DNA of 64,000 nt from Escherichia coli O127:H6 str. E2348/69 (GTDB taxonomy: Bacteria; Pseudomonadota; Gammaproteobacteria; Enterobacterales; Enterobacteriaceae), in the NCBI RefSeq assembly GCF_000026545.1, contig NC_011601.1; one strand, written 5' to 3'. Below the pieces are notes generated by a model that was not told where the DNA came from, did not search any database, and worked only from the letters and a program-made list of their open reading frames with translations. Positions 15,909 through 23,250 of the stretch are shown here, piece by piece. The position numbers were made by a program, and so were the translations under genes. The stretch's first letter is position 1, and each line of letters opens with the position of its first letter.

Positions 15909-15944
15909 CAACCTCCTTTCCACTGGGTACACCCTTGTGTACAC
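15909..15944. repeat. Left copy of boundary repeat aacctcctttccactgggtacacccttgtgtacaca
   Basis: About 28 of 32 positions match the right copy; contains the palindrome GTGTACAC. Confidence 0.5.
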
Positions 15945-15958
15945 ATAAAATTGACACT

Positions 15959-16558
15959 TTATCGATTTTTTGCTTGTTTTTTGCTCCATGCCAAAATCTC
16001 TGCGGCATCAAACATTACTCGCCTCTCACCCATCTTAACTGGTTTTGGAAAATCGGGTCTCATCTTCCATCGCTGTAATGTGCTTTTGCTAACAGCAAGA
16101 AAATCGGCTACCTTTTGCACACTCACATATCCTTGGCTTGGAAAATCAGAGCTGTTGACATCATTCTCCCGTTCTATCCTTGCCTCTTCATGAAAACCAG
16201 CCTTCTTTGAAGGTATTTTAAGCGGTCTCTCCCGCGCTTTATCTTTTACAGAGTAAGACTCGATCCTGAGCTTTTTGTGTATCTTAAGAGGAGGTTTTTT
16301 GGCTGGTGGCTCAGGCGTCGGTTCTGGTGGTAAATAGTAATAGTAAGCCCTCACTAAATCTTCTGGTGTCAGTACACCGTAACTCATTGTTTCACGATCC
16401 GGGCGTAGTTCCAGTACCCCAAATCTAAACAACTTGTCCATTTCTGCGCTTGTTATTTCGAAGTGTTCTGACTGCTGCCCCCGAAGCTGGTAAGTTAACG
16501 CTTCTCTGGCTTCTTCAATATCATATTCGGGATGAGGAAAATGTGGTTTGCGAATCAT
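15959..16558 (-). CDS. Two-domain protein: N-terminal unknown domain, Pro-rich linker, C-terminal AlpA/excisionase-type HTH
   Basis: 199 aa; 'YVSVQKVADFLAVSKSTLQRWKMRPDFPKPVKMGERRVMFDAAEILAWSKK' is AlpA-like; linker 'PPEPTPEPPAKKPP'; ATG start with SD. Confidence 0.55.
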   Translation of the reverse strand: MIRKPHFPHPEYDIEEAREALTYQLRGQQSEHFEITSAEMDKLFRFGVLELRPDRETMSYGVLTPEDLVRAYYYYLPPEPTPEPPAKKPPLKIHKKLRIESYSVKDKARERPLKIPSKKAGFHEEARIERENDVNSSDFPSQGYVSVQKVADFLAVSKSTLQRWKMRPDFPKPVKMGERRVMFDAAEILAWSKKQAKNR

Positions 16559-16662
16559 CTAACTACCTAAACATCTACCCAAGAATTAATGCAAAAGTAA
16601 ACAATATCATATACAATATAAATGGTAAGTAGTTACCTAATTATTGGAGTAAGAAATTACAT

Positions 16663-16839
16663 ATGGATATGACCATGCAGGAATTACGGGCTACTCTAAA
16701 CCTATCCCCCAACTATCCTGAAGAAAACCACTTTCTAGATGATAATCTAACGGAAGAACTCGATAATGAGGAAATTCGACAACATCTGGGAATAGATTCG
16801 GATTGGATGGATGCAGTGGACACTAGCCAGATAATTTGA
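16663..16839 (+). CDS. Candidate small acidic protein (58 aa), below the ORF-track size cutoff
   Basis: Hand-translated: MDMTMQELRATLNLSPNYPEENHFLDDNLTEELDNEEIRQHLGIDSDWMDAVDTSQII*; 'ggag' SD 9 nt upstream of the ATG; divergent from the 199-aa gene. Confidence 0.3.
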   Translation: MDMTMQELRATLNLSPNYPEENHFLDDNLTEELDNEEIRQHLGIDSDWMDAVDTSQII

Positions 16840-17030
16840 ATCCTAACTAACAAAAACGCTGTCTGCCCTCTGTAGATTGGCGCTCTGTAGTGTTTGTCTT
16901 GCTTGCTTTTGACACCAAGTCGCCTGTAACTATGATCACGGGCAGGCATGAGCAAACAGATAACATAAAAGTCTATTATGGGAAGTGATTCAAGAAATCA
17001 TGGTAATTCATAGATAACTAAAATAGAATA

Positions 17031-17062
17031 ATAGCCCAAATCAAACTTGATGAGGGCTATAT
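17031..17062 (-). terminator. Intrinsic terminator downstream of the cargo operon
   Basis: Hairpin atagccc/gggctat immediately after the nucleotidyltransferase stop, followed on the minus strand by a T-rich tract. Confidence 0.45.
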
Positions 17063-17064
17063 TT

Positions 17065-21042: not shown

Positions 21043-21432
21043 TTACAGGTACTTTTCCCCAATTGCTTGCGTTATCTCTGAGAACGACGATTCAGACACG
21101 TCCCCTCTGATCCCCCTAAGTATTCGTAACGCAGACTCAACCTTGCGTAATATCTTCGTGTATCTTGCATTGGTGCGCCATATACAAAGCATTCCCGCTT
21201 TGTCGAGTCGGTATTTTACCAAATCCCTTTCAGGAATGTGATATGCACCATCCATGCGCTGTTCGACGGGGATACCCCAGTCATTACGTAACAGAGTTAA
21301 AACACGGCTGCGCTCATGTCCACCAGCAGAAGATAAGTACCTGTCAAATTGGGTTGGGGTGAGGCTATGACCATCTAACAGAATATCGCGGATCTGTGCG
21401 GTAGCTTGGTTTCGTGTCAATGCTTTCATCAT
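21043..21432 (-). CDS. hypothetical protein (129 aa; truncated from the 231-aa ORF)
   Basis: Start at internal 'MMKALTRNQ' with SD-like 'aagggg' upstream; the longer ORF form would overlap the HTH gene in another frame. Confidence 0.4.
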   Translation of the reverse strand: MMKALTRNQATAQIRDILLDGHSLTPTQFDRYLSSAGGHERSRVLTLLRNDWGIPVEQRMDGAYHIPERDLVKYRLDKAGMLCIWRTNARYTKILRKVESALRILRGIRGDVSESSFSEITQAIGEKYL

Positions 21433-21439
21433 TTGCCCC

Positions 21440-21622
21440 TTACAGAAACCGGGCTGCGAATTGGTCGAGATCTGCAACCAACCATACTCTGCGCTTTCTG
21501 CCGTTGATAGACTGGACGGTGCAAGTCGGAAAAGCTGGAATGTAACGCTTATATTGGTAAAAGCGTGATAGACAAACGCCAAGATATTGCGCGGATTCTC
21601 GCGCGGTAAGGTAATTTTCCAT
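21440..21622 (-). CDS. AlpA-like excisionase/HTH regulator (60 aa)
   Basis: 'LTARESAQYLGVCLSRFYQYKRYIPAFP...NGRKRRVWLVADLDQFAARF' fits the AlpA/Xis HTH pattern; first gene after the integrase. Confidence 0.6.
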   Translation of the reverse strand: MENYLTARESAQYLGVCLSRFYQYKRYIPAFPTCTVQSINGRKRRVWLVADLDQFAARFL

Positions 21623-21824
21623 AATAACGATCCATGTTTATGTTTTGTCCACATTATGGGGCATCCTGCCCCATAAATACTGTACATAATTTTTTCAATT
21701 ATCCCAAGTCTACAACCAAAAAATCTCCCGCGTAGCAATCCCTATAGTTCGCCCTTGTTCTGTTTCAATTTCATATACGCTAGCTCCACACAAGCTGTAT
21801 CGCCACCATAATTTCGATCTCCGG

Positions 21825-23087
21825 CTAATTACAGTTACTATATTTTTTCATGGGGACGACGTTGTAATCTTCACCACTTTCCAGCGTAACCAGCAGTTCA
21901 GCCCACTGCTCCAATGCAGCTTTTCTCTCTTCAAAATAGTGGTGGCGATTATAAATACCTTCAACACCGGGTATTTTATGATTAAGACATCTTTCAGCTA
22001 TTACAGGATCAATCCCCAATGCTGCCATCTGGGTACGCATCGTACGTCGTAAGTCATGAATGCTAAATGGCTCAACATCAGGCATCTCTTTTAATACTGA
22101 AGGCAAAACCATATTCAGCGTACTGCGACTAACGTGCGATGTAGTCCTCCCCCTCCTTGCCGGAATTAACCAGCGGCTATTACCAGCAAACAGACGGATT
22201 TCCTTGATCCATTCGATAACAGGATCAGCTAGCGGGATGTCTATCTCCTCACCATTTTTTGCTCGATCAGCAGGAAAATGCCAAACTTTTTCATCAAGAT
22301 TAAACTCCGACCACTCGGCAGCGCATAATTCCATCTTGCGAACCCCTAGCGCGAGAATGATTTTAAACGTTAACTCATTCTCTCTGCTAATACCCCGCCC
22401 CTTACGCAGAGCTTTAAAAAACATTACTAGCTCCTCACGCGTGAGTGCTCGCTTACGCCCTTGCTCTTTCCCGCCTGCATCTTTTGAACTAAATGAAATC
22501 GCGGGGTTTACTTCAATCATCCCGCGTACAACAGCATAATCAAAAAGGCGCTTAAGCATTCTTAGCACGTCATTCGCAACGGTAGGAGAACCGCGCTCTA
22601 ATACATTCTGCAAAACATAGTCGATATGTTTCGGGCGTACATCCTCAATTTTCATTTTGCCGATAGATGCGACAATGTTTTTTTGTAAGCTACTGCGAAA
22701 TAACTCCGGATGCTTGTAAGTGGGTTCTATCTGCCGCGAGTAATACTCAGCGGCTAAATCTGATACTCGTTTTGCGTTCTTTTGCGCTTCAATCTTTTCC
22801 AATGCTTCAGCTTTTCGCTTCTGTTTCTCTCCTGCTACGTCATAACCAAGAGAAACACGGGCTGCCAGTTCTCTGGCGACCTCTCTTGCTTTTGCAAGAG
22901 AGAAATCAGTATACGAACCAATCAGCACAACTCGCGATTTTCCGCCTAACTTGTAACGAAAGCGCCAGTTAGGGAGTTTGTCACTTTTCCTAAATCGAAG
23001 ATAAAGCCCGTTTCCGTCTGCCTTACCTTCGAATCTCTCATCGGATTTAATCCAAGCTTTGATTTGTAGGTCAGTTAATTTTGCCAT
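21825..23087 (-). CDS. int: P4-type tyrosine integrase
   Basis: 'MAKLTDLQIKAWIK...GNGLYLRF' N-terminal domain; C-terminal 'HDLRRTMRTQMAALGI...GIYNRHHY'; start set at ATG 23087 with SD 'aggtg' (track start is a GTG at 23096). Confidence 0.85.
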   Translation of the reverse strand: MAKLTDLQIKAWIKSDERFEGKADGNGLYLRFRKSDKLPNWRFRYKLGGKSRVVLIGSYTDFSLAKAREVARELAARVSLGYDVAGEKQKRKAEALEKIEAQKNAKRVSDLAAEYYSRQIEPTYKHPELFRSSLQKNIVASIGKMKIEDVRPKHIDYVLQNVLERGSPTVANDVLRMLKRLFDYAVVRGMIEVNPAISFSSKDAGGKEQGRKRALTREELVMFFKALRKGRGISRENELTFKIILALGVRKMELCAAEWSEFNLDEKVWHFPADRAKNGEEIDIPLADPVIEWIKEIRLFAGNSRWLIPARRGRTTSHVSRSTLNMVLPSVLKEMPDVEPFSIHDLRRTMRTQMAALGIDPVIAERCLNHKIPGVEGIYNRHHYFEERKAALEQWAELLVTLESGEDYNVVPMKKYSNCN

Positions 23088-23131
23088 TACGAACACCTGA
23101 ATACGTTACATCGGGTACGCAAAGCCATCGT

Positions 23132-23216
23132 CACCGTGTACCCAATTTCTAACACCGTGTACCCAAACCGCAAGAACCTCTCTTTGGGTACACTTTTGTG
23201 TACACAATATCTTGCA
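23132..23216. repeat. Integrase-proximal repeat cluster: two direct 'caccgtgtacccaa' copies 21 bp apart, inverted 'tgggtacac', palindrome GTGTACAC; includes right boundary repeat (23185-23216)
   Basis: Read directly from the sequence; position between the integrase start and the der terminator suggests arm-type or regulator binding sites and attachment-site sequence. Confidence 0.5.
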
Positions 23217-23250
23217 TCTTTATGAACTGTTATGACAACTAGTGATAATA

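Follow-up and report, generated by a model that had tools for sequence, protein, structure and literature searches.

Chromosomal integration and rolling-circle replication are combined in the AICEs of Actinobacteria (e.g., pSAM2), integrative elements that encode an integrase, an excision factor, a Rep and an FtsK-like transfer protein, are self-transmissible and can exist as a plasmid. Minimal integrative carriers of defence genes are also known. The PICMIs of Vibrionaceae (PMC10803314) and the marine VEIMEs measure 6–7.5 kb and combine a tyrosine integrase and an AlpA-type helix-turn-helix (HTH) protein with one replication function; they lack structural and packaging genes, lie in single copy in a housekeeping 3′ end with short direct repeats, and carry a variable anti-phage hotspot beside the replication gene. 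For most small defence islands, the means of movement is not known. Here, we describe an island that resembles PICMIs and VEIMEs in all of these respects. It is a 7.5-kb island (~7.47 kb; 15842–23333) inside the 3′ end of the essential gene der of Escherichia coli E2348/69 (EPEC O127:H6), and positions refer to the window, that is, the whole 64-kb stretch of contig NC_011601.1 that was analysed. We consider that the der island is probably an integrated rolling-circle plasmid-type replicon that carries defence cassettes, in which three modules would be joined: one for integration, one for rolling-circle replication, and a swappable cargo slot (Table 1).

The replication module appears to comprise the genes for a 60-aa HTH protein, a 129-aa winged-helix protein and an HUH rolling-circle replication initiator (Rep), together with the DNA block downstream of rep. 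Residues 78–176 of Rep match REP_ORF2-G2P (PF23343, E = 1.2e-5), which is its sole Pfam match; no NCBIfam model matches it, and a PDB sequence search with a Rep profile gave no match. Fold comparison of the predicted structure recovered the HUH nuclease fold. In an alignment of seven divergent members of the family (21–35% identity), H123 and H125 of the HUH motif (motif II) and Y172 and K175 of the YxxK motif (motif III) were invariant, and motif I, (Y/F)xLTL, was conserved ahead of the HUH motif at residues ~76–80. The family is small: a search of 1.84 billion proteins yielded 14 representatives at E<=0.001. The 129-aa protein was modelled confidently (pLDDT 88.8), with a winged helix leading into a long helix. 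In place of these two small genes, RefSeq has a 203-aa coding sequence (CDS) at 21043–21654 (H4J01_RS25315), which covers the 129-aa open reading frame (ORF). Because its upstream extension is interrupted by an in-frame stop in other islands, the 203-aa CDS is likely over-extended and mis-annotated; in the 60-aa HTH frame, almost only synonymous changes were seen. Between the 129-aa ORF and rep, which are 52 nt apart, lies a strong GC hairpin (21012–21031; ACCCGCC-TGGC-AGGGCGGGT) with a T-run on the plus strand, which could be an attenuator or other regulatory element for rep, or a terminator of antisense transcription.

The nearest relatives of Rep are on free plasmids rather than in phages: tblastn matched 16 plasmids, 15 of Klebsiella and one of Enterobacter, several of which were 5.3–6.3 kb, whereas no match was found among 50,697 phage records, inoviruses included. 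We inspected three Klebsiella plasmids (NZ_AP022186.1, NZ_CP103581.1 and NZ_CP141860.1; circular, with a unit of 5.5–6 kb), and all had the trio of HTH, winged-helix and Rep genes in the same order, with no other rep gene, replicon type or integrase. For instance, NZ_AP022186.1, a circle of 5,747 bp without a replicon type, carries the gene of a 68-aa DNA-binding protein, followed by an overlapping 126-aa ORF and by rep, together with genes for a serine recombinase and an HTH protein. The 60-aa HTH protein of the island is 41% identical to the 68-aa protein (E = 3.7e-9) and the 129-aa protein 38% identical to the 126-aa ORF (E = 3.9e-27), and the two Reps match with E = 1e-21. Because the trio is also present on plasmids that lack an integrase, it would consist of replicon genes and not of an excision cassette. 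MOB-suite typed 14 of the 16 plasmids as non-mobilizable, including all inspected small ones. The 12,132-bp record NZ_CP141860.1 consists of a 6,066-bp unit present twice, head to tail, with one mismatch; this may be an artefact of assembly or a genuine multimer of the sort known to arise in rolling-circle plasmids. In addition, a 4.5-kb metagenomic contig carries a 127-aa/Rep pair, a resolvase and an HTH_17 protein, and its 30-nt terminal overlap is consistent with a circle. No experimental study of the three inspected plasmids was found in the literature searched.

A candidate origin lies in the conserved noncoding backbone downstream of rep. Its core, AAAGTCTTAGAAAAAAA-N12-GAAGGGC, is a form of the motif AAAGTCYTAGAAAAAAA-N12-GAWGGGC, which occurs once in the window against 0.02 expected. 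The motif stands at fixed spacing 3′ of rep in the der islands, the Klebsiella plasmids, a 5.25-kb contig (L006), Escherichia albertii and an island at argW (L018), lineages whose Reps share merely 27–35% identity. This conservation marks the block at 19771–19806 as a candidate double-strand origin and nick region, and the nick would be expected within AAAGTCTTAG/AAAAAAA. The GC hairpins of the two 22-nt repeats close to it have a counterpart in the Klebsiella plasmids, where one or two copies of GGCGG-TTTCA-CCGCC stand at the same distance 3′ of rep; the origin block and the GC hairpins are located ~85–220 nt downstream of rep. The 622-nt conserved noncoding segment has a single-stranded DNA (ssDNA) fold with z = −5.2 relative to 20 shuffles, which is compatible with a single-strand origin, yet no proof of one. 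Blastn of the origin region against 72,556 plasmids gave no match. After excision, Rep would nick the origin via Tyr172, and the circle would then be copied by the rolling-circle mode; we infer this excision, the episomal replication and the nick site.

Through the origin motif we also reached a related island in argW (tRNA-Arg), which was present in 542 of the 5,426 E. coli genomes and near full length in 225. In the reference copy (L018; NZ_CP024862.1 965398–975623), the order is int, small HTH genes, a 64-aa DNA-binding protein, a 128-aa ORF, Rep, the origin motif, cargo, a 58-aa ORF and a serine recombinase. Identity between the argW and der islands is 72% for the HTH protein, 59% for the 128-aa ORF and 47% for the 58-aa ORF, and it falls to ~32% for Rep and ~26% for the integrase. 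RefSeq names the Rep of this lineage 'rolling circle replication-associated protein'. In O157:H7 (FRIK944) and O55:H7, only a C-terminal fragment of Rep, the origin, cargo and the recombinase are left of the argW element, and this remnant is fused to what survives of a P22-like prophage (intS, ejection proteins and a truncated tail needle gene). A functional link between the argW-type rep remnants and these prophage genes was considered and rejected, as the latter belong to a P22-like prophage that uses the same tRNA site and has decayed. The contig L006 was likewise rejected as a free plasmid. Its ends do not overlap, and the argW island encodes a resolvase 100% identical to its own, making L006 an argW-type fragment.

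The limits of the island were fixed by alignment of both junctions with the empty site of strain A25, in which sinH lies directly beside der. The intergenic DNA of A25 corresponds to window 15387–15862 and its der end to 23313 onward, so that the two matches overlap by 21 bp, and the island is bounded by imperfect 21-bp direct repeats at 15842–15862 and 23313–23333. The empty site (TTACTTACTTTTCTTGATATG) corresponds in its left part to the sinH-side copy and in its right part to the der-side copy, and an 8-bp central segment in the last der codons (CTTTTCTT) is identical in both copies and the empty site, a pattern expected of a tyrosine-recombinase overlap region. Read in the direction of der, either version of the attachment (att) site encodes ...KKSK-stop; therefore, the insertion falls inside the der frame and restores der. 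Insertion would swap the last der codons for synonymous element-borne ones plus a terminator and leave der intact. All islands examined have the att pair: the der-side copy is always of the element type (...GCAAATA), and the distal copy keeps the host's own der ending (...AGTAAGTAA or ...AATAAATAA). An Rfam 'Trp_leader' match at 23248–23347 corresponds to the element-borne terminator after der, and the Rfam scan gave sub-threshold chance matches only. GC content is 31–38% across the cargo versus ~52% in the flanking core genes, and the 64-kb window contains no tRNA genes. The first-pass annotation, made from the letters of the sequence, had placed the element at 15909–23250 next to der and proposed that genomes without the insertion would define its att ends. 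That comparison did so, moving both ends outward to the att repeats and the insertion into the 3′ end of der itself. Between sinH and the distal att copy, RefSeq annotates a fragment of an IS4-family transposase pseudogene (15568–15833); its DNA is ~85% identical in the empty-site strain, and it is therefore older than the island and no part of it.

The window contains four copies of the 9-mer TGGGTACAC against 0.27 expected, each within ~190 bp of an att core: three lie on the stretch from int to the der-side core, the fourth by the distal core. These copies are candidate arm-type binding sites of the integrase. At the left end, all der islands keep a 199-aa protein with a C-terminal AlpA domain, whose family is a single protein cluster among 5.8 billion proteins; this att-proximal protein is a likely excision regulator or a candidate recombination directionality factor. 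The integration module would then consist of the P4-type integrase, the four arm-type sites and the 21-bp core, with the 199-aa AlpA protein regulating excision.

We investigated the distribution of the backbone (19545–23312) among complete E. coli genomes. It was found in 19 of the 5,426 (0.35%), which belong to unrelated serotypes and hosts, and it was always single-copy, chromosomal and at der. Hailong islands with identical Rep were found with two different der alleles trapped at the distal end, and their left flank was of three kinds: sinH directly, yfgJ-xseA-guaBA, or yfgJ together with a sinH/ratA-like island. As identical islands thus stand in different der alleles and flanks, the element appears to have moved recently, and the pattern indicates several independent, recent integrations. 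The six backbone ORFs were intact in four other islands, with ratios of nonsynonymous to synonymous polymorphism (pN/pS) of 0–0.33, and the backbone genes are under purifying selection. Several der islands are interrupted by the insertion sequences (IS) IS1, IS3, IS5 or IS30, and strain OW1E2 retains only an N-terminal fragment of the integrase; individual copies therefore do decay. A 9.6-kb contig covering the whole island (L020) was examined as a possible circle and ruled out, since it has der and att flanks.

The cargo slot was delimited by alignment with three other variants, in which conserved arms (15839–~16850 and ~19380–23333) enclose a variable segment, and the backbone is 96–99% identical between islands of different cargo. 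In E2348/69 the slot holds a Hailong system, with the halB-like gene directly downstream of halA after a 1-nt gap. As summarised in a review citing Tan et al. 2025, short DNA made by HalB keeps the HalA channel shut until phage exonucleases destroy that DNA. The slots of other der islands hold a type I CBASS (cyclase and two-transmembrane (2TM) effector), the candidate system PDC-M43 or an AAA ATPase/DUF2357 pair, and the E. albertii relative carries GapS6b. The slot, flanked by the origin region on one side and by the 58-aa ORF on the other, has had its cassettes swapped among otherwise near-identical backbones. The Hailong cassette of E2348/69 has no further location in complete E. coli genomes. 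The ~525 bp upstream of halA (18848–19373) are cargo-specific, with no convincing ORF, Rfam match or counterpart in other variants, and may be a promoter or regulatory region of Hailong or a decayed gene. On the other side of the slot, the highly acidic 58-aa ORF could encode a DNA mimic or anti-restriction protein, or a regulator; the Klebsiella plasmids have small acidic ORFs of 65–70 aa without detectable homology to it.

Table 1. Features of the der island of E. coli E2348/69, with positions in the 64-kb window
Feature	Position	Strand	Basis or remark
Distal att copy (sinH side)	15842..15862	.	TTACTTACTTTTCTTAATATG; trapped original der 3′ end; overlap in A25 empty site
Distal-arm repeat	15924..15962	+	One TGGGTACAC site (15924-15932); direct repeat of 23185-23223
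199-aa protein, N-terminal domain without known relatives and C-terminal AlpA	15959..16558	-	Pfam Phage_AlpA, E=3e-8, residues 145-191; pN/pS 0.11-0.33
58-aa acidic backbone ORF	16663..16839	+	phrog_35119, E=5e-14; homologs in L006 (40%, 3e-8) and argW L018 (47%, 4e-9)
Variable cargo slot	~16860..19373	.	Backbone alignments with L003, L004 and L005 end at ~16671-16859 and restart at 19374-19545
halB-like nucleotidyltransferase	17065..17724	-	NF051895 anti_phage_HalB, 187.7 bits vs curated cutoff 190, E=1.9e-55, full length
halA, Hailong effector (pentapeptide repeats and membrane region)	17726..18847	-	NF051894 anti_phage_HalA, 295.2 bits vs cutoff 250; RefSeq halA
Conserved noncoding backbone 3′ of rep	19374..19991	-	Candidate double-strand origin, possibly single-strand origin, AT-rich tract; kept in all der islands
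Origin core AAAGTCTTAGAAAAAAA-N12-GAAGGGC	19771..19806	-	Candidate nick and Rep-binding site
Two 22-nt repeats, 53 nt spacing	19833-19854 and 19886-19907	-	Each with a 6-bp GC hairpin, GCCGCC-NNN-GGCGGC
HUH rolling-circle replication initiator (Rep), 332 aa	19992..20990	-	Pfam PF23343 and conserved motifs
129-aa protein, winged helix and long helix, obligate partner of Rep	21043..21432	-	Predicted structure; homologs beside Rep
60-aa HTH_17/AlpA-like DNA-binding protein, first gene of rep module	21440..21622	-	Pfam HTH_17, E=0.0026; unannotated in RefSeq
P4-type tyrosine integrase, 423 aa	21825..23096	-	Pfam Arm-DNA-bind_3, Phage_int_M and Phage_integrase; phrog_1, E=1e-65; pN/pS 0.08-0.21
Int-proximal arm	23132..23223	.	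Three TGGGTACAC sites (23136-, 23157-, 23185+)
Element-borne intrinsic terminator	23254..23274	-	Just past regenerated der stop; 9-bp stem, then T-run
att copy at der 3′ end	23313..23333	.	TTATTTGCTTTTCTTGATATG; element-derived codons encode ...KKSK*

With regard to gene content, the first-pass annotation was largely borne out. Its order of genes on the minus strand (int, 60-aa HTH, 129-aa protein, Rep, repeats, an ORF-poor stretch at 18848–19991, halA-halB at 17065–18847 and the 199-aa fusion protein) is as it had said, and its separate 60-aa and 129-aa gene models are right where RefSeq has the 203-aa CDS. The P4-type integrase is confirmed by its three Pfam domains, the HUH Rep by PF23343 and the invariant HUH and YxxK motifs, and the origin-like repeats by the 22-nt pair; the 17–19 kb operon, read as defence cargo, is Hailong, and each variant carries a known or candidate anti-phage system. 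Two descriptions need amendment. The listed genes all lie on the minus strand, so that 'unidirectional' holds for them and not for the conserved 58-aa ORF on the plus strand; and the segment called ORF-free is ORF-poor and has two parts, the cargo-specific 18848–19373 and the conserved backbone 19374–19991 with the candidate origin. Outside the island, a lambdoid prophage lies beside guaA at window positions ~1–4340, ~11 kb away, with genes for a tyrosine integrase, an MT-A70 methyltransferase, an ASCH protein, a PerC-family regulator and RecT.

Because the trio is found on free Klebsiella plasmids, we prefer to describe the island as an integrated plasmid-type replicon, which may behave as a satellite or as an integrative mobilizable element (IME). 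Several points weigh against this description. We found the der island neither excised nor as a circle, and it is on no E. coli plasmid record. Rep is only distantly like the plasmid Reps (27–34% identity), its Pfam E-value is modest, and beyond the core its AlphaFold2 model reaches only medium confidence. No specific single-strand origin was identified, the GC hairpin repeats could be plain terminators that insulate the backbone from the cargo, and a promoter scan showed no enrichment (17 versus 19.3 in shuffles), so that no promoters were inferred.

The foremost alternative, which we regard as unlikely, is a minimalist phage satellite of the PICMI/VEIME kind, in which a helper phage would trigger excision by AlpA and Int, rolling-circle concatemers would be packaged headful, and the cargo would block competing phages. 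The architecture is indeed PICMI-like (~6–7.5 kb, int with AlpA and a replication gene, housekeeping 3′ end, single copy, high-turnover defence hotspot; PMC10803314), and the der island shares with PICMIs the lack of capsid and packaging genes. Moreover, the concatemers of PICMIs and VEIMEs have been ascribed to 'plasmid-like rolling circle replication', and E2348/69 has prophages, including the one in the window. However, of the features by which PICMIs are recognised, the der island has the integrase and AlpA (PF05930/PF12728) but neither the defining DUF3987/DUF5906 primase nor the adjacency to fis. No island protein or DNA is similar to any of the phage records searched, the closest Reps being those of free plasmids, and no helper phage is known. 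Classical HUH replication yields ssDNA monomers and not double-stranded concatemers, unless termination fails. Searches for cos were negative, including one with the P2/P4 cos sequence and <=3 mismatches allowed. PHROGs, NCBIfam and Pfam scans detected no satellite, packaging or conjugation genes. Of the P4-like hallmarks, they matched only int and AlpA, and of those of PICIs and cfPICIs, they gave no match to a Pri-rep primase, terS, ppi, rpp or capsid gene. At the sensitivity of these scans, the absence of structural genes stated in the first-pass annotation holds. Its likening of the island to a minimal phage satellite or mobilisable element survives in part: the island is a compact, site-specific integrative carrier of defence genes, but it has no P4, PICI or PICMI hallmarks, cos, phage similarity or relaxase.

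That the island is an IME moved by conjugation, with Rep doubling as a relaxase (cf. MOB_T Rep_trans) or the noncoding block serving as an origin of transfer (oriT), is less probable again. HUH Reps and relaxases have a common fold and chemistry, the island is too small for self-transfer, and defence systems are enriched in IMEs, with many islands carrying just an oriT (bioRxiv 10.64898/2026.01.13.699239). On the other hand, NCBIfam, Pfam and PHROG searches matched no relaxase, type IV coupling protein or mating-pair formation gene in the island; Rep belongs to PF23343 and not to Rep_trans/MOB_T; and both the non-mobilizable typing of 14 of the 16 related plasmids and the unmatched origin region among 72,556 plasmids speak against conjugative transfer.

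We give little credence to the view that the island is a domesticated or decaying remnant, that is, an immobile, fixed defence locus. It would account for the lack of an observed circular form, the IS-interrupted copies and the clearly decayed argW relatives of O157:H7. It is countered by the intact backbone ORFs under purifying selection, by identical islands in different der alleles and flanks, by cargo swapped on a 96–99% identical backbone and by the presence of the island in 0.35% of genomes, from unrelated serotypes and hosts. The segment, absent from 99.6% of complete E. coli genomes, is not a fixed, non-mobile part of the chromosome in all relatives, and int and rep are intact genes rather than pseudogenes. 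Finally, that the island derives from a filamentous (inovirus-type) phage or is a satellite of one, similar to RS1/TLC of Vibrio cholerae, keeping only a gene II-type Rep and regulators and having its ssDNA packaged by a helper inovirus, is scarcely credible, for although REP_ORF2-G2P is the sole Pfam match of Rep, rolling-circle Reps naturally give ssDNA circles and satellite filamentous phages without coat genes exist (RS1, TLC), Rep has no match in the phage collection with its inoviruses, no ssDNA-binding, coat, Zot-like or packaging-signal feature was detected, the relatives of the island are plasmids with resolvases, and integration is by a P4-type integrase and not by XerCD/dif.

Going back to the plasmid-type replicon, a wider proposal, possible and at present doubtful, is that the der islands, the argW islands and the small Klebsiella plasmids make up one unnamed enterobacterial 'plasmid-island' family. 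In this family, the replication module would let a defence cassette excise and amplify by rolling circle, perhaps triggered by phage infection, with a higher dosage of defence genes and with ssDNA or concatemers carried by a helper phage or conjugative element. If true, no satellite-like hitcher based on an HUH Rep would have been described in E. coli before it.

No description of the der element was found in the searchable literature, which is incomplete, and, in its main text, an E. coli defence-island survey (PMC10121019) gives no der hotspot and no such element. New here is the recognition of the 60-aa HTH protein, the 129-aa protein, Rep and the origin block as one module common to plasmids and argW islands; minimal integrative defence carriers and the RefSeq name of the argW-lineage Rep were already known. 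The der island is distinguished by its HUH-Rep plasmid replicon and its der-internal att site. This single module ties untyped small Klebsiella plasmids to the argW island, which is carried by ~10% of complete E. coli genomes (~4% near full length). It also supplies a native genomic context for a Hailong system. As the der island sits in a standard laboratory pathogen, with six backbone genes, precise att sites, a candidate origin and natural cargo variants, the excision of a minimal island, its possible replication as a rolling-circle episome and its carrier between cells become directly testable.

Compared with known systems, the der island shares with P4-like satellites and P4-integrase islands the integrase architecture, an AlpA-family regulator and defence cargo, but it has no alpha primase-helicase, psu, sid, delta or cos, measures 7.5 kb instead of ~11 kb and would replicate by its HUH Rep. 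Relative to PICMIs, it has an HUH nickase and two small DNA-binding partners in place of the DUF3987/DUF5906 primase, its target is der and not fis, its host is Escherichia and its relatives are free plasmids. AICEs differ from it in host phylum and Rep family. With the small rolling-circle plasmids of the pMV158 and pC194/pUB110 classes, its Rep shares motifs I, II (HUH) and III (YxxK) and the HUH fold, and in both the origin adjoins rep and has hairpins. The argW island of E. coli and E. albertii (e.g., AR_0015, L018) has the same module order, origin motif and defence cargo, whereas its att lies in a tRNA gene, it has extra small genes and an additional serine recombinase, and it is far commoner. 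The Klebsiella plasmids share the HTH/winged-helix/Rep trio and the conserved origin block at 27–41% protein identity; where they have a serine resolvase, the der island adds a tyrosine integrase and att sites and resides in the chromosome.

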